IMG/VR virus record: IMGVR_UViG_3300045988_149348
Length of the DNA: 42,988 nt
Source of the DNA: a virus
Taxonomy: Duplodnaviria > Heunggongvirae > Uroviricota > Caudoviricetes
Direction: 5' to 3' (one strand)
Made by a program: the position numbers and the translations under genes. The number at the start of each line of letters is the position of its first letter. Position 1 is the first letter of the stretch. Below the pieces are notes generated by a model, which saw only the letters and a program-made list of their open reading frames with translations, made no database searches and had not been told where the DNA came from. This document shows positions 1-42,988 of this stretch, in pieces.

Positions 1-35
1 TTTACCGTTTCCTGTAAACCGAGGTATTCGATAAC
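1..35. repeat. gix/hix-like invertase crossover site (left copy); inverted-repeat partner of 42954..42988
   Basis: Bases 1-25 are the exact reverse complement of 42964-42988. Bases 10-35 (TTCCTGTAAACCGAGGTATTCGATAA) resemble the 26-bp Gin/Hin-family sites as recalled. The site lies inside the 3' part of the tail-fibre reading frame. Confidence 0.7.
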
Positions 36-23214: not shown

Positions 23215-23290
23215 TGGTGGCCCCTACCGGATTTGAACCGATGACCGTGCGATTATGAGTCGCCTGCTCTAACCACTGAGCTAAGGGGCC
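23215..23290 (-). tRNA. tRNA with CAU anticodon (Met or Ile2/lysidine type)
   Basis: 76-nt cloverleaf folded by hand: 7-bp acceptor stem, GCTC/GAGC D stem, anticodon loop CUCAUAA, T loop TTCAAAT, 3' CCA encoded. The 5' 42 nt match E. coli ileX-type tRNA as recalled. Confidence 0.8.
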
Positions 23291-23459
23291 ATATTTGATC
23301 TGTTTGTCTGGTGTGGCGCCGCGCACGAAAATCCCAGCCAATAAATTCAGGATTTTTGGGCGCGGCGGCATATCAGACAAACATGGTTGATGCGTGCGCC
23401 CATGAGAAAAGCGCATAGAATGTTGTAACTATATATTTATATAATTATAGAAATATATA

Positions 23460-25452: not shown

Positions 25453-25878
25453 TTATATATGTTCACGACTGGACTTCCAGAATATCCACGCCAGATCAAC
25501 ATTCTGGTCTTGGTAATTCATCCCTTCGTTGGCACGAAGCAATAATGTTTCATGGTTTTTATCACCCGCATGAAACCTGACAAGTGCTTCGAACTTTTCG
25601 CGCCCATCATCCGGCACTACCGCCGTTGGCGGCGCGGAGAATAGAGGTTTAGGTGATATTTCCGCACGTTTTGCGTATGCTTCAACTGTGTCAGGGTTAA
25701 ACAGGATTATGTTTTCACCGCATTCCCACGCTACCGGCTCTGCTTCCAGCGATGCCAGCGCGATACGAAACACATTGGCAAGCAGGCTGCTTGAAGATTG
25801 GTTATCGTGCGCCGGGTCGCTCAGGAAACCAGTGATGAATGATTTAATTTCCGCGTTTTCTCTGGTAATAGTGGTCAT
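25453..25878 (-). CDS. hypothetical protein
   Basis: 141-aa ORF, last gene of the accessory block. Confidence 0.4.
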   Translation of the reverse strand: MTTITRENAEIKSFITGFLSDPAHDNQSSSSLLANVFRIALASLEAEPVAWECGENIILFNPDTVEAYAKRAEISPKPLFSAPPTAVVPDDGREKFEALVRFHAGDKNHETLLLRANEGMNYQDQNVDLAWIFWKSSREHI

Positions 25879-26390
25879 GCCGCGTATCCTTCTTTCTTAT
25901 TAACAATTACACCGTCATATATTTCATTAAGGTGCCCTCTCAACTCCATGCGCCTTAATGCAGATAACATGTAATCGCATTCAACCTGCTTATTCCCAGT
26001 AAATGGCTTATCGTCAGGATTACCCCAACAGCAATTACCCTTGGGCCACCCATGTACTTTCCGTACTCTTCCGTTAACAACGTGAAGCAATCCCCAGCCA
26101 GGCGGTAAATCCTCAACTGAAATAATTCCCGGCTCACTAATAAAGAATCGCCAGTCGCCCATTCCAAGAGACGGATTTTTACGGAAACGCTTTTTTCTAT
26201 CTGCCAACAAGTCAGCACGAGAACACTTCGCCTCTATCAAGCATGATGCTGAATTTCTGAATCCCATAGCATCTGGCTGTTCTCCGGTACTGGTTACAGC
26301 TATAAAGCGGTCATGAAAGCAAACCTTGAACCCGTTGCGCTTAAGGAACTTGTACGCAATCTGACAGAGTTCGCGGTGTGTTAACGCCAT
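25875..26390 (-). CDS. putative PD-(D/E)xK-fold nuclease-like protein
   Basis: 171 aa from ATG 26390 (AAGGAG upstream); D...CLIEAKC arrangement resembles a D-ExK catalytic motif; assignment tentative. Confidence 0.4.
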   Translation of the reverse strand: MALTHRELCQIAYKFLKRNGFKVCFHDRFIAVTSTGEQPDAMGFRNSASCLIEAKCSRADLLADRKKRFRKNPSLGMGDWRFFISEPGIISVEDLPPGWGLLHVVNGRVRKVHGWPKGNCCWGNPDDKPFTGNKQVECDYMLSALRRMELRGHLNEIYDGVIVNKKEGYAA

Positions 26391-26575
26391 CTCACTCTCC
26401 TTTAGTGCGCAGATAACAGTGGTTTTTCCAGCGGTTTTGCGCCGCGCTACGCTTATCTTTGACTCCCTCTCTGGCAATTCCAGAATATAAGTACAACACC
26501 ACACGGCGATTGCTAACTCTCAACCACTGGCTGGGATAGCAACGTCTGTATACACGGGAAATAAGCATCTTTGCT

Positions 26576-26863
26576 TTACGGTTTTTCATCGTTTGCCCCC
26601 TGCTTTTCTGCCCTTAACACCATGCGAGAACCATCATCCAGCTCCCAATTGATTTCACCGCCTTCTGCCATGACAAGATGCCAAACGAGTTGTGCGGCCT
26701 CGTTGGTTACATCACGACCGCGATCATTGCCTACACGGCGTTTTGTTCCGTCACCTAAATCGCGCATTTTGGCCAACACGATGGTTTTTGATAGCGGTGA
26801 AAAACCAAGCTGTAGCCGTGCGGAATTACTCACTGGTTGCCCCCTGAATACGTTTAAACTCAA
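26576..26863 (-). CDS. hypothetical small protein
   Basis: ORF track only; start uncertain. Confidence 0.3.
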   Translation of the reverse strand: MSLNVFRGQPVSNSARLQLGFSPLSKTIVLAKMRDLGDGTKRRVGNDRGRDVTNEAAQLVWHLVMAEGGEINWELDDGSRMVLRAEKQGANDEKP

Positions 26864-28167: not shown

Positions 28168-28244
28168 TGTCGAGGCGTCCTTATACATTTATATAAATAT
28201 ATAATTCTATATACGGCGGGAGACATCCCGCCGTAGGCTTACTG

Positions 28245-29318: not shown

Positions 29319-29420
29319 TCTCCGGTTTAACCAGGGCGGGTATCGCTCGGTTTCGGGTATAACCTTAGGAAATTTTTTCCCACCTGTAAAGCACTTTTTA
29401 TATAAATCTATAATTATATA
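29319..29420 (-). promoter_or_regulatory. duplicated ~100-bp promoter/leader module, copy A (candidate Q-dependent late promoter region)
   Basis: Near-identical to 38909..39021 (3 differences seen by eye); sits between the Q-like stop codon and the next start codon; contains TTTACA-17-TAAGGT and an AT-rich 20-mer. Confidence 0.55.
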
Positions 29421-29481
29421 TTTATAGATTTTCGATGTTCCCGATGTCTACACACCATCAAAACAGCTCAAAATGACACTT

Positions 29482-33129: not shown

Positions 33130-33264
33130 CTGCAAGCGGGCTAACGCCCGCTTATATGATTATAGATTTATATAATTATATAAAACGCTTTCCATCCGCC
33201 AAAAAGTTGGTTATGCTTACCTCGTTCTATAAATATAGATTTATAGAATTATATAACCAAACAC

Positions 33265-33933
33265 ATGGAGTCTCGACAAATGACTATCTCTGTAGGTATT
33301 TTCAACGGAAAAGGCGGCGTAACCAAATCAACAATTGCCCGTGCTTTAGCAGTTGCTTATGCAAAGGCTGGCTGGAATGTATGCCTGATCGATATGGATG
33401 TGCTTAACGGAACGGTAACGCGTTGGGTACAACGCAGAATGGCCAACAATATCGAACCAGCAATCGCGGCGCAGCCGTGCGGCACACCATCACAAGTCCA
33501 GAAAATCATCGAATCAGAAGTATACGACCTGGTTATCGTTGATGGCGGTGCCTACGCATCTGAATCAGTACCGAAGCTATCTGAATTTCTGGATATGGTT
33601 ATTTTGCCAACCCGATTCTCTACCGATGACCTGGAAACCACCGTTAACACTGCTCACGGCATCGTTAAAAAGGGTGTGCCAATCAAGAAAATTTGCATGG
33701 TGTTTTCCGGCGCGGCTGAAAATGAAGCTGACTATATTGAAGCCCAAGAGTACCTGGCTAATACGCCATACTTTGTTGTCGATAAGTACATTCCCCACAA
33801 GCCAGCTCTGAGCAAAGCTCAGGATAAGGGCTTAAGCCTCATTGAATGCTCATACGTTGCGCCACGCAAAAAGGCAGACGACGTTATTCAGGGGATTATC
33901 AACCAGCTTGAGGCTCTGACTACTGCCGCGTAA
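33265..33933 (+). CDS. ParA-family partition ATPase (small, type Ib-like)
   Basis: 222 aa; deviant Walker A GKGGVTKST near the N-terminus; followed by a small ribbon-helix-helix-like gene; AT-rich repeats upstream. Confidence 0.7.
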   Translation: MESRQMTISVGIFNGKGGVTKSTIARALAVAYAKAGWNVCLIDMDVLNGTVTRWVQRRMANNIEPAIAAQPCGTPSQVQKIIESEVYDLVIVDGGAYASESVPKLSEFLDMVILPTRFSTDDLETTVNTAHGIVKKGVPIKKICMVFSGAAENEADYIEAQEYLANTPYFVVDKYIPHKPALSKAQDKGLSLIECSYVAPRKKADDVIQGIINQLEALTTAA

Positions 33934-33976
33934 TATATAATTATAGTTTTATAGATTTATATAAGAGGGGATACAC

Positions 33977-34225
33977 ATGGCCGCACCATCAAAACCACCA
34001 AAGAAGAACAGCAAAGGCGTACCGCCATCGATCGAACAACCGCAGGTTTTCGACCCGACTGAAACGCCAACCAGAACCAAATCAGGTGGGGCACAAATGG
34101 CGTTTAACGTCGACCCTGAATTTAAACGCGAGTACAAAACGTTCGCCAGCTCAATGGATATGTCATTGAAAGAAGTGCTGACAAAATCTTTTGAGTTACT
34201 CAAGGCTCAATACAACCAGAAGTAA
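33977..34225 (+). CDS. ParG-like ribbon-helix-helix partition/centromere-binding protein
   Basis: 82 aa; basic Pro-rich N-terminal tail and C-terminal RHH-like segment (MAFNVDPEFKREYKTFA...); immediately downstream of the ParA-like gene. Confidence 0.5.
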   Translation: MAAPSKPPKKNSKGVPPSIEQPQVFDPTETPTRTKSGGAQMAFNVDPEFKREYKTFASSMDMSLKEVLTKSFELLKAQYNQK

Positions 34226-34446: not shown

Positions 34447-34469
34447 TAAAAAAGGCCCCCGAAGGGGCC
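34447..34469 (-). terminator. rho-independent terminator (minus-strand orientation)
   Basis: GGCCCC-CGAA-GGGGCC hairpin with an A-run on the plus side, giving a U-run on the minus strand after the small peptide ORF. Confidence 0.55.
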
Positions 34470-34475
34470 TAATCG

Positions 34476-34598
34476 CTACTTGCTGCTAATGTTTATCGTC
34501 ACATTCAGAGCGTTATCAGTAATCTTCCAACCCTCCCCATGTGGCGTAAACAAAGCTCCAGTAACAACGATAAAAATACACATGTAGTATTTTTTCAT
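34476..34598 (-). CDS. small hydrophobic peptide (40 aa), candidate membrane peptide
   Basis: MKKYYMCIFIVVTGALF...; AAGGG 8 nt upstream of ATG 34598; own terminator downstream. Low confidence. Confidence 0.3.
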   Translation of the reverse strand: MKKYYMCIFIVVTGALFTPHGEGWKITDNALNVTINISSK

Positions 34599-34976
34599 TG
34601 TGTGGCCCTTACAGGCCGTTTCACGGCATCCCCACCGACGAAAATGACGCGAGAGCAAGCACGCTGTTTGTGCCTGCGTGGTACGGCAAGTGGATAATCC
34701 TTTCCTGAAAGTCGGTGCCCGGTTGCGAATCGGCGAAAAGGCCCCGCGTAATGTTACACCGCAGCCCCTTCATAATGAAGGGATAAAAATGTATTGTTTT
34801 TCATTAGGTTAAATACACACCACAAAAATCACTCGCTTTTGTGCTCTAATAAACCAAATTTATTTGGACAATTTTATTCAGTTGGGTAAGAATATGGTTG
34901 CTGTTTGTGCTTGCGTGGTTGTATTTATACAACAACGTAATGCTGAAAGGACCGCGAATCCGATCAGCACGAAAGA

Positions 34977-35002: not shown

Positions 35003-35556
35003 GTTTCTCCCCCTTCCTTCCCAAATGATTCAAATGTTAATGAGAGTGAATCATTTGATATGTTCGATTTAGCGCCGTTATCGACCCAATTTCTGTATGC
35101 TTCATCACAACAGTACCTTACAGCAGTTGGAGTAACAGGGATGCCGCCCCCAAATGAGAATCCCATTGAGCTAATGCTAACTCTTTCGAATGGCCTATTT
35201 CTCAATGCTTCAAACCCCTTGCTATTAAAGTAACGCAGCATCAGAGGTAAAAGGTTATCCTCGTCCTGACTGATTGTTCCAGGGAAAAAGTAGTAACCAT
35301 AACGGTTAAATTCGGGAATAAGAATTTCTACCAATGACATGAAATTCACTGGAGTAATATTAAGGGCTGTGAAAGCACCAAAAAGGGCGTCAACTGTTAA
35401 TACAGACTGCCCGTTCTCTATCTTTGTCCATGCGTTTGGTGTTTTTCCAGCAGCTTGAGCCAGCACTCCTTGATGCACACCTCTTTCTAGCCTAAGTTCT
35501 TTTATGATCATTAGGTGAATTGTTGAAAAACATGAGTTTTTTGACTGTTCAATCAT
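34984..35556 (-). CDS. HTH_XRE-family DNA-binding protein with uncharacterised C-terminal domain
   Basis: 190 aa; helix-turn-helix VLAQAAGKTPNAWTKIENGQSVLTVD; GGGGA ribosome-binding site 6 nt upstream of ATG 35556. Confidence 0.55.
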   Translation of the reverse strand: MIEQSKNSCFSTIHLMIIKELRLERGVHQGVLAQAAGKTPNAWTKIENGQSVLTVDALFGAFTALNITPVNFMSLVEILIPEFNRYGYYFFPGTISQDEDNLLPLMLRYFNSKGFEALRNRPFERVSISSMGFSFGGGIPVTPTAVRYCCDEAYRNWVDNGAKSNISNDSLSLTFESFGKEGGETKKPSF

Positions 35557-35692
35557 TTTTTATCCCCATACTGAATTTTTTCTTGTTCCCGACTTTAACA
35601 AAACCCCACAACTCAGGACTGATTGATTCCTTACAGGAACTATACATTCCCATTTTTAGCATATCAAGAAAATTAAAAGCCCCGCATTCAAA

Positions 35693-35737: not shown

Positions 35738-35839
35738 TAAATGCGCCATTGGTGGACACTTTCCGAGCCGTAGCAAAATCTACGGTCGGGATTGGAACCC
35801 CGTAGACACAATGGCGCATACCGCGTTAGCGGTTTTTTT
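35738..35839 (+). ncRNA. candidate c4-like antisense regulatory RNA with intrinsic terminator
   Basis: Structured ~100-nt region: GCGCCATTG...CAATGGCGC long-range stem, CCGTAG/CTACGG inner stem, then ACCGC-GTTA-GCGGT plus UUUUUUU terminator (35820..35839). 35789..35817 is complementary in two blocks (CATTGTGTC, GTTCCAA) to 35917..35941 in the downstream leader. Confidence 0.5.
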
Positions 35840-36005
35840 ATGCGTAAAGCACTGCTACACCCAAATTATGGTGGGGCGTGCGGGGGAGTCGTAAGACTCG
35901 CCGGTTCGTCATTGTGTCCGGTAGTTCCAACCCTGCACGTCTCACCACCCAATGATTGGAACCTGACGGTGGTGAGTATCCTTAACCTTTAAGGGAATCA
36001 TCACA

Positions 36006-38908: not shown

Positions 38909-39021
38909 TCTCCGGTTTAACCAGGGCGGGTATCGCTCGGTTTCGGGTATAACCATAGGAAATTTTTTCCCACCTGTAAAGAACCTTTTTATATAAATCT
39001 ATAATTATATAACTCTATGAG
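38909..39021 (-). promoter_or_regulatory. duplicated ~100-bp promoter/leader module, copy B
   Basis: Near-identical to 29319..29420, including the TATAAATCTATAATTATATA 20-mer. Confidence 0.55.
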
Positions 39022-39065
39022 CACAAAAAAGCCCCTTTGCAACAGGGGCTTATCATTCGTTCTGA

Positions 39066-41174: not shown

Positions 41175-42023
41175 TTAATGTTGGAGTGATTTCCAGGTCT
41201 TTCTTAACCTGTTATAACGCTGCTCAACGAGGGATCGTAAATATGCAAGGTCAGCACCTGGATACATGCCATCAGCAAATTCCTGACTAACCTCTCTAGT
41301 GATTTGATGACGAAGTTCGGCCTCTCCCTTTTCCTGAACAAGACGCGCAGCTCTCTCCGCTGCTTTCTGTTTTGCCTTTATCTCTCTGGCCGTCTTCCTC
41401 TGACGCCATACATTCTCCATCTGCTCCTGAATAACAATACGCTTATAATCAGCCTCCGTTATCGCTTTTTTAAGCCGTTCGCTATTCTTCGCATTGAAGT
41501 AATTAAGTTTCTGGCTAACCGCACGTCTCCATGCTTGTTCAGTAATACCAACGGTTTCCAGCAGTTGATCACGAATCTCTATTTTCGCTGGCCAATACTG
41601 TTTATTCACCCGATCCCAGCGACGTTCATAATCAATAAAACCTAACGCTTTCAGTTGCGACAACGCCCTTGTACAGCGCGTTATAGACTTGTTCCCAGCT
41701 TCGGATACGGTAGACAGGCCGCAAAAATCAGCCAACGCCTCAGCACTAGCCAGAACCCGCTTAGAAATGATGTTTACATGGTGCAAAATCGCAGCGATCA
41801 CAGCATTAATCGCCCGACGACGATGCTCGTTTATCCGGCGCTTCCGCTCTGACGGTTGATTAACGTAGAACGCAACCTCACACGTAAGATCACGCCCATT
41901 AATGCGCTGTAAAGCATCAGATAACACCAGCGGCAGCTTGTGCGTATGGTGCTTTGGAGGCTGGAACTCCGGCGACAAATTACAAACGTAAGCTGAACGT
42001 AGAGACGGCATTGGTCTATCCAT
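41175..42023 (-). CDS. repA: plasmid replication initiator RepA, IncFII RepA1-like
   Basis: 283 aa from ATG 42023; CGLSTVSEAGNKSITRCTRALSQLKALGFIDYERRWD matches the RepA1 core motif as recalled. The ORF track's longer form (to 42185) starts at a TTG. Confidence 0.75.
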   Translation of the reverse strand: MDRPMPSLRSAYVCNLSPEFQPPKHHTHKLPLVLSDALQRINGRDLTCEVAFYVNQPSERKRRINEHRRRAINAVIAAILHHVNIISKRVLASAEALADFCGLSTVSEAGNKSITRCTRALSQLKALGFIDYERRWDRVNKQYWPAKIEIRDQLLETVGITEQAWRRAVSQKLNYFNAKNSERLKKAITEADYKRIVIQEQMENVWRQRKTAREIKAKQKAAERAARLVQEKGEAELRHQITREVSQEFADGMYPGADLAYLRSLVEQRYNRLRKTWKSLQH

Positions 42024-42067
42024 ATGTTCGCTCTTGCGTCCACGGAAAACCAACGTATAATGGGAGT

Positions 42068-42148
42068 TGTCGATGCGCCCATGGATATTGTTGTTGGTTT
42101 TCCGTGGATGTCGCAAGAAGCCCGCAGATTTATCTGCGGGCTTTTTGT
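42068..42148 (+). ncRNA. candidate CopA-like antisense RNA (countertranscript to the repA leader)
   Basis: Plus-strand promoter TTGCGT-16-TATAAT (-10 at 42056..42061); stem-loop CCAUGGA/UCCGUGG; terminator GCCCGCAGA-TTTA-TCTGCGGGC plus TTTTT (42120..42146); lies 45-125 nt upstream of repA on the opposite strand. Confidence 0.55.
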
Positions 42149-42190
42149 TTCCATATCTGGTCACTTTCCAACCAGACACCCACAATCATA

Positions 42191-42205
42191 ACCACGTTAC
42201 GTGGT
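42191..42205. promoter_or_regulatory. operator, ACCAC-N5-GTGGT family (ACCACGTTACGTGGT), upstream of repA
   Basis: Perfect 15-bp inverted repeat in the spacer of a putative minus-strand promoter with -10 TATGAT. Confidence 0.55.
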
Positions 42206-42335
42206 TTTAAGAGAACTCTACCACAACACTTTCGGTCATGCACGAAGTCTCTCACTGATCGAACGATAATCCACCAGTAAAAGGATCTAAATTGGATCTC
42301 GTTTTGCGAGCATCATACTACTGGCCTAACTCCAG

Positions 42336-42890
42336 TCAATGATTCCCAGCCGGAAACCTGCGGTAAAGCGTGGATAAGGTAACATCGAAGATAATCGCTA
42401 TCCGCTTACGTGAAACACCATTCGCAATAAGCCTTCCGATCTGTTCCCATTGCTCTGGTGCCAATTTTGAGCGGCGTCCTCCTATCCTGCCGTTAGCCCT
42501 TGCCACCGCCAATCCTGCACGCGTTCTTTCAATCATATTTTCCCGCTCCATCTCTGCGACTGCACTCAGCATCGTGTAGGCAAAGCGGCCAATTGAAGTG
42601 CTAATTTTTATCCCTTCCGTAATCGAAATAAACTCAATGTTGTTTGATAAAAAATAGTTAAGTAAATCAACAAGATGAATCAGAGAACGCCCCATTCGGT
42701 CCAGCTTCCAGACAATAACCGTATCGCCCGGCCGTAACACCTTCAGTAGCTTATCAAGTCCTGGTCGTTTTGATTTAGCACCGGATATTTTATCTTCAAA
42801 AATCCGGTCACATCCTGAACTCCTGAGCGCTTCCAGTTGTAATTCCAAATTCTGGTCAAAAGTTGACACCCTCGCATAACCATATTGCAT
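42336..42890 (-). CDS. serine recombinase, Gin/Hin/Cin-family DNA invertase
   Basis: 184 aa; YARVSTFDQNLELQ catalytic-serine motif, VWKLDRMGRS, C-terminal GRIGGRR...LSTLYRRFPA helix-turn-helix; closely parallels Gin as recalled; gix-like site about 65 bp upstream. Confidence 0.8.
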   Translation of the reverse strand: MQYGYARVSTFDQNLELQLEALRSSGCDRIFEDKISGAKSKRPGLDKLLKVLRPGDTVIVWKLDRMGRSLIHLVDLLNYFLSNNIEFISITEGIKISTSIGRFAYTMLSAVAEMERENMIERTRAGLAVARANGRIGGRRSKLAPEQWEQIGRLIANGVSRKRIAIIFDVTLSTLYRRFPAGNH

Positions 42891-42953
42891 ACTTTCTAAA
42901 CCGCGATTGTTGCTAAAAGCGGAAAAAAATATCGTTCAGACGACACAGAGGCA

Positions 42954-42988
42954 ATTCGCAAAAACCTCGGTTTACAGGAAACGGTAAA
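42954..42988. repeat. gix/hix-like invertase crossover site (right copy); inverted-repeat partner of 1..35
   Basis: Reverse complement of 42954..42979 is TTCCTGTAAACCGAGGTTTTTGCGAA; 25-bp perfect inverted repeat with window positions 1..25. Confidence 0.7.

Follow-up and report, generated by a model that had tools for sequence, protein, structure and literature searches.

A phage-plasmid contig very probably bounded by the two arms of a Gin/Pin-type tail-fibre inversion switch

The closest described relatives of the locus reported here are the DNA inversion switches run by the small serine recombinases Gin of phage Mu, Cin of phage P1, Pin and Hin, and the locus is itself a switch of this known type, an ordinary and uncharacterised member of the family. 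The hix sites of the Hin system have a 26-bp architecture like that of the crossover sites described below. In Gin, Cin, Pin and Hin, His106 controls the dependence of the enzyme on Fis, and the mutations that make Gin, Cin or Hin independent of Fis map to the region of this residue; the position of residue 46 has also been tied to contact with the enhancer. For Hin, the residues that contact Fis are Gln151, Arg154 and Leu155, of helix 1 of the DNA-binding domain (PMC3798978). In helix B, the equivalent of Hin residue 47 is Lys in all 15 invertases that were aligned, while residues 48 and 51 are Lys or Arg, and the distance from hixL to the proximal Fis site is ~100 bp (PMC3798978). The annotated record of phage P1 places the Cin recombinational enhancer at nt 19-90 of cin, that is, within the gene for the invertase itself.

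The DNA that we analysed, referred to here as the window, is the whole viral stretch of 42,988 nt. We consider it very likely that the window represents the backbone of a ~46-kb circular phage-plasmid, lacking its ~3-kb invertible tail-fibre segment, that this segment belongs to a Gin/Pin-type switch, and that the contig broke where it did because the segment was present in mixed orientations.

A first-pass annotation of the window had reported that positions 42964-42988 are the perfect reverse complement of positions 1-25 (TTTACCGTTTCCTGTAAACCGAGGT), and an exact match was indeed found. The identity ends at nt 26, each arm is single-copy within the window, and a repeat search scores the terminal pair as 28 nt with 96% identity. 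The chance of finding a perfect 25-nt inverted repeat exactly at both termini is ~4^-25. The two arms, and the crossover sites that overlap them, are as follows.

1..25, no strand: left repeat arm, which stops at the window edge, the inner edge of the repeat
42964..42988, no strand: right repeat arm, which stops exactly at the window edge
9..34, plus strand: left gix-like site, 26 bp, TTCCTGTAAACC-GA-GGTATTCGATAA, with its central dinucleotide at 21-22
42955..42980, plus strand: right gix-like site, 26 bp, TTCGCAAAAACC-TC-GGTTTACAGGAA, with its central dinucleotide at 42967-42968

With the boundaries of gix and cix taken from the annotated Mu and P1 records, comparison with these reference sites, which the first-pass annotation had proposed as a check, identified the 25-bp repeat as the inner 25 bp of the 34-bp repeat that flanks the G segment of Mu. 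At both window sites the inner half-site and the TC/GA core are identical to gix. The outer half-sites (TTCGCAAAAACC on the right and TTATCGAATACC on the left) differ from gix and from one another, and it is because of this divergence that the perfect repeat extends over 25 bp and not 34 bp. On the left, the outer half-site is 1 nt off the outer half-site of cixR, falls within the constant region of the tail-fibre gene (Sc) and is kept in four relatives (L001, L008, L013 and L014); the right outer half-site is also present in relatives. All half-sites match TTNNCNNAAACC about as well as those of gix and cix do, and the overall architecture is that of two inverted 26-bp sites, each made up of two imperfect 12-bp half-sites (TTNNCNNAAACC) and a shared 2-bp core. 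No further convincing crossover site was returned by a relaxed search of the window and of the segment of relative L001, and the presence of only two sites points to a simple two-site switch and not to multiple inversion of the Min type. By analogy with the characterised invertases, strand exchange would fall at 21-22 and at 42967-42968, in which case the outermost ~20 nt of each window end would be invertible DNA.

The sites vary among relatives. Five contigs that encode an identical invertase (L017, L019, L020, L023 and L024) carry on their Sc-proximal arm a cix-like inner half-site (GGTTTACGAGAACTCGG...), leaving an inverted repeat of about 12 bp; identity between the inner half-sites is apparently not required by the enzyme. 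For the relative found in ATCC 25922 (L008, L010-L012), both inner flanks start with TCAGGCTTCT... and the segment's initial 68 nt are 98.5% identical to the L001 segment at its opposite end, which suggests, at the level of sequence, that the inverted repeat is longer in this relative. One of its sites also carries an A-to-G change (GGTTTGCAGG).

Next to the right site lies the gene for the putative recombinase.

42336..42890, minus strand: DNA invertase gene, encoding a small serine recombinase of 184 aa with Ser9 as the nucleophile

Its ATG (42890) is 64 nt from the outer edge of the 26-bp site, which agrees with the earlier statement that a recombinase gene begins ~65 bp inside the right-hand site, and the gene reads away from the adjoining site, as gin does in Mu. 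Placement in the Gin family, likewise proposed at first pass, was borne out both by an end-to-end match to Gin and by the gix identity of the inner half-site and central dinucleotide. We detected a Resolvase domain (PF00239, E 3.4e-44) and an HTH_7 domain (PF02796, E 2.9e-13), and residues 2-181 aligned without gaps to residues 2-181 of Mu Gin (PDB 3uj3; E 1.6e-61, 210 bits). Identity is 54% to Gin, 55% to Cin, 60% to PinE of e14 and 87% to Pin of SJ46, and both Ser9 and Arg42 are present. Judged by these alignments, the invertase is a member of the Hin/Gin/Cin/Pin small serine recombinases, proteins of about 180-195 aa that combine an N-terminal catalytic resolvase domain (nucleophile Ser9/10) with an HTH domain for DNA binding at the C-terminus. 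The exact 184-aa protein was seen on 539 public contigs and is indexed in 1,208 assembly-collection blocks, with public names such as 'DNA invertase Pin-like site-specific DNA recombinase'. A promoter/terminator scan of 42000-42988 gave no convincing promoter for the invertase.

At the other end of the window, a tail-fibre gene runs into the left site.

1361 to 3, minus strand: constant N-terminal part of the tail-fibre gene (Sc), 453 aa, open at the window edge

The Sc product matches the Pfam family Phage_fiber_2 in three stretches (E 1.7e-56), and its C-terminal end, ...AVIEYLGLQETV (...YLGLQETV), is coded across the crossover site. The proposal that both ends are arms of a single system was upheld by closed relatives, in which the ends face each other across a tail-fibre cassette segment, the gap between them measuring 2,921 bp in the closed circular plasmid NZ_CP139394.1 and 3,061 bp in Yersinia phage vB_YpM_44. 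The ends were not found in unrelated genomic contexts, the outcome that the first-pass annotation had named as fatal to its reading; relatives join them through the cassette segment. In these relatives the segment holds a tail-fibre C-terminal fragment and a chaperone gene on one strand and a chaperone gene and a tail-fibre C-terminus on the other, the arrangement Sv-U / U'-Sv' of Mu and P1, and over 2.1 kb the G segment of Mu and a relative's segment share 94% identity. Joining Sc in silico to the relative's segment gave in-frame products both ways, of 765 aa or 749 aa, that differ in their C-termini, as would be expected of a host-range switch. The relatives have the same perfect repeat of 25 bp, so that the window halts exactly at the inner edge of the repeat on both sides. 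For the ~3-kb segment, the sequence expected at both termini is ACCTCGGTTTACAGGAAACGGTAAA.

Not all differences between segments are inversions. The segments of vB_YpM_44 (L002, 12071-15171) and L001 (5948-8908) had been taken, from their site-proximal sequences, for opposite orientations, a reading that we rejected since direct alignment revealed a mosaic and not an inversion. The chaperone block has the same orientation in both, at 84% identity, and the two Sv 5' ends are exchanged between the arms, suggesting recombination between the arms on top of simple inversion.

At 98-99% identity, the sequence of the right window end occurs in 71 plasmid records and in three Yersinia phage genomes, and 40,519 of the window's 42,988 nt align colinearly with NZ_CP139394.1, a complete plasmid of 48,995 bp. 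The closed circular relatives are phage-plasmids of 48-49 kb. DNA of NZ_CP139394.1 that is absent at the window ends amounts to the segment alone, in agreement with the earlier suggestion that the window is the whole element minus the segment, and the other differences between the two are internal indels. Genes of the element include those for an IncFII-type RepA, ParA, a RelE/ParE toxin pair, terminase, portal and capsid proteins and a P2/Mu-type contractile tail. The literature that we searched held no published description of this backbone or of its switch, and CP009073 appeared there in incidental citations only. In that literature, vB_YpM_HQ103 is an unrelated 32-kb phage, and the pSLy3 group falls within the SSU5 supergroup of ~100 kb. 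NZ_CP148365.1, which had seemed a size-matched relative, is an N15-like protelomerase phage-plasmid that carries the same module, and NZ_CP139394.1 served for the backbone comparison in its place.

Several further features of the backbone were recorded. At ~23202/23203 the window is without ~3.2 kb of NZ_CP139394.1 (13725-16941, with an MT-A70 methyltransferase and small ORFs), and two blocks found only in the window (25463-26842 and 35012-35689) are unmatched; this absence and these blocks look like accessory-gene flux. A tRNA-Met (CAU) gene lies at 23215-23290 on the minus strand. Rfam matches above the gathering score (35767-35952, plus strand, and 34448-34746, minus strand) comprise isrK (67.7 bits) followed directly by C4 antisense RNA (77.8 bits), a layout that resembles the immI-type immunity regions of P1 and P7, and a full-length ryfA RNA (136.6 bits). 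An AT-rich repeat with a core of about TTATATAAATCTATAATTATATA is dispersed in both orientations over at least six intergenic-looking spots (~23418-23459, 28181-28206, 29385-29440, 33147-33256, 33928-33977 and 38984-39028) and could be an operator or late-promoter motif of the phage-plasmid.

Evidence for inversion came from comparison of relatives. When the backbones are set in one orientation, the whole segment of AP019710 or AP025749 matches that of CP139394 in reverse. The outer half-sites show no difference on either side, and the inner flanks change places precisely at the repeat. A strand comparison across all plasmid matches agreed with these end-to-end inversions, and the order of the chaperone genes in ten retrieved contigs with the identical invertase ran one way in four and the other way in six. 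Assembly breaks told a similar story. The first base of contig L022 coincides with the outer edge of the repeat. In contig L023, the first 77 nt are an inverted copy of the flank on the invertase side, and the far arm follows; L024 has this arm attached to Sc (625/625 nt identical). A start of 77 nt is what a k=77 graph would yield if the flank joins both arms in the reads, and one assembly shows both junction types. Backbone contigs that end at the inner edge of the repeat, together with segment contigs that start at its outer edge, are the de Bruijn signature expected of a mixed population. The claim that the contig had broken at a segment present in two orientations fits these observations, in that both orientations occur among relatives and the window stops at the inner edge of the repeat, matching breaks elsewhere. 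From this, we infer that the orientation was mixed in the window's own sample.

The ATCC 25922 plasmid has the same orientation in four independently closed assemblies, a fifth closure being cut by the record origin, and given this single orientation, switching may be slow or biased. In L021 (GCA_026235235.1, JAEGVG010000034.1, 2273-6640), a cassette segment lies between two invertase genes with no Sc, one encoding a Gin-like protein of 199 aa (K46/H106) and the other a window-type protein of 184 aa; the contig is a genuine hybrid of two elements or else the product of a misjoin at the segment that they share.

Taken by analogy with the characterised systems, the switch would operate as follows. 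Dimers of the invertase would bind the two inverted 26-bp gix-like sites at the window ends, bring them together in a synapse, cleave via Ser9 at the central TC/GA and then exchange strands by a 180-degree rotation of subunits. Each variable C-terminus points in the same direction as its own assembly chaperone, and a flip of the segment would change which of the two C-termini is fused to Sc; the outcome would be particles with alternative host ranges. As for Gin, Cin and Hin, activation would probably come from host Fis acting on an enhancer in the first ~90 nt of the invertase gene. With both orientations in the sequenced population, the assembly graph would branch at the repeat, and this is most likely why the contig ends at the inner edges.

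The same end positions would be expected if the switch were fixed in one orientation in the sample and the break at the 25-bp repeat were technical, caused by a small k-mer, by graph simplification or by a co-resident P1-like plasmid with a ~90% identical segment, since de Bruijn graphs collapse any repeat of at least k-1, and an assembly at a k of about 25 or less would break here whatever the orientation. The uniform orientation of the four closed ATCC 25922 assemblies fits such a reading, as does the finding that E. fergusonii strains hold a 48.7-kb relative together with a 96-kb P1-like plasmid bearing a related invertase module, and the segment is common to many P1-like plasmids at about 90% identity. 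We nevertheless consider a purely technical break unlikely, because the usual assemblers end at k 55-141, where a 25-bp repeat is not collapsed, because the k=77 signature with both junction types is seen in another assembly, and because both orientations are frequent on contigs with the identical enzyme.

Two readings that dispense with inversion fare worse. The recombinase gene lies ~150 bp from the IncFII repA ORF, resolvases are among the small serine recombinases, and the NCBIfam matches of the protein are sub-threshold only, all of which could suit a plasmid multimer resolvase beside repA with an incidental terminal repeat. We regard this as highly improbable: resolvases of gamma-delta and Tn3 score ~100-110 bits, about half of the Gin score, and the Fis-contact triad specific to invertases is conserved; moreover, the sites are two single 26-bp gix-like units, inverted around tail-fibre cassettes, with no three-subsite res layout in direct repeat, and the module recurs on N15-like and P1-like backbones, adjoining tail-fibre cassettes in every case. 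It is hardly credible that the 25-nt repeats terminate a transposon or a linear replicon, even though perfect inverted repeats at both termini are a classical sign of these, given that closed circular relatives bridge the window ends with the cassette segment, that the terminal repeat is gix, that the tail-fibre ORF runs through the left end, and that neither a transposase nor a protelomerase was found at the window ends. We therefore favour a Gin/Pin-type inversion switch with a contig broken by its mixed orientations.

A candidate enhancer could be placed in the invertase gene.

42801..42872, minus strand: candidate Fis enhancer, invertase codons 7-30, homologous to the annotated Cin enhancer of P1

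Over this interval the window gene is gapless against both gin and cin. G-N13-C 15-mers centred on gene nt 29 and nt 78 lie at the positions that they occupy in gin, as picked out by a home-made heuristic score that gives many hits, and the nearer of them is ~105 bp from the crossover. Third-codon-position identity is higher in the enhancer interval than in the rest of the gene (0.46 vs 0.33 against gin; 0.83 vs 0.71 against SJ46), and overall identity in the interval is modestly above that of the remainder. These comparisons point to a predicted functional Fis enhancer in the 5' part of the invertase gene, and by analogy with its relatives the enzyme is likely to depend on Fis. The Fis-contact triad is kept as Q150, R153 and L154; it is lacking in PinL of phi80 and in Asp37.

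Two positions in the enzyme depart from the family pattern. Residue 46, which corresponds to Hin 47, is Asp in place of the Lys that is always found there, with K47 and K50 retained, and codons 103-109 read FAYTMLS (Thr106) in place of FFFHVMG (His106). Pin of SJ46 has both Asp46 and Thr106, whereas Gin, Cin, PinE, D6 Cin and the invertases of Kp4850-2 and KP12 have Lys46 with FFFHVMG (His106). One could imagine that the enzyme, with those of SJ46 and the N15-like phage-plasmid, represents a distinct and widespread Pin-like sub-branch that needs Fis and the enhancer less strictly or in a different way, perhaps serving a host-range cassette that is portable between unrelated backbones; we see this as a long shot. 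The Asp46 and Thr106 changes are a small lead for researchers of serine invertases.

The N15-like element mentioned above (L006, NZ_CP148365.1) carries the invertase at 74-628 with 98.9% DNA identity and the segment at 42852-45919 with 95% identity, on a backbone with a protelomerase, SopAB and a lambda-type non-contractile tail; its segment is fused to a gene annotated as 'prophage tail fiber N-terminal domain'. Based on sequence comparison, the switch looks like a module that has been exchanged among at least three backbones, namely the window type, the N15-like type and, at ~90% identity, the P1-like type. One module on three unrelated phage-plasmid backbones offers a small lead for work on phage-plasmid host range. 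As a textbook host-range switch, the system otherwise adds little biologically. For annotation, its meaning is more practical: under our preferred reading of a mixed-orientation break, the contig would be a complete phage-plasmid minus about 3 kb, and its termini would not be the ends of a transposon or telomeres. Assembly breaks of this kind would mark sites at which DNA is actively inverted, and the tail-fibre and host-range annotation of such contigs would be truncated unless the segment is recovered.

The layout is that of Mu. The order Sc - site - Sv U / U' Sv' - site - invertase is the same, with the 5' end of the invertase gene beside its site, and the TC/GA core and the inner 25 bp of the 34-bp repeat of Mu are identical to the window's repeat. 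The enzyme is colinear with Gin and conserves Ser9 and Q150/R153/L154. It differs in being 54% identical and in having Asp46, Thr106 and FAYTMLS where Mu has Lys46, His106 and FFFHVMG. The outer half-site of Mu is TTATCCAAAACC, compared with TTCGCAAAAACC and TTATCGAATACC in the window, and Mu is a transposable phage, whereas the window is a phage-plasmid with an IncFII RepA.

P1 shares with the window a tail-fibre switch of host range on a phage-plasmid, and its enhancer is annotated in the 5' part of cin. In contrast to the window, however, cin reads toward the segment with cixL at its 3' end, the core is TT/AA, the inverted repeats are 0.6 kb long and Cin is 55% identical; the P1 backbone is unrelated and measures ~94 kb, against ~46-49 kb here. 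The closest named enzyme is Pin of the P1-like SJ46, with 87% amino acid identity, about 90% DNA identity and a shared Asp46/Thr106. PinE of e14 belongs to the same family, has the same length of 184 aa and a similar C-terminus and is 60% identical, but has Lys46 and His106.

Hin is likewise of the same family, and its ~100 bp between crossover site and proximal Fis site (PMC3798978) compares with about 105 bp in the window; it differs in controlling a flagellin promoter and in having its gene inside its own segment. Min of p15B and the shufflons resemble the window's system in that the C-termini of tail fibres or pilus tips are exchanged by site-specific inversion. They use more than two crossover sites, compared with the two found in the window and its relative's segment, and the shufflons rely on a tyrosine recombinase.
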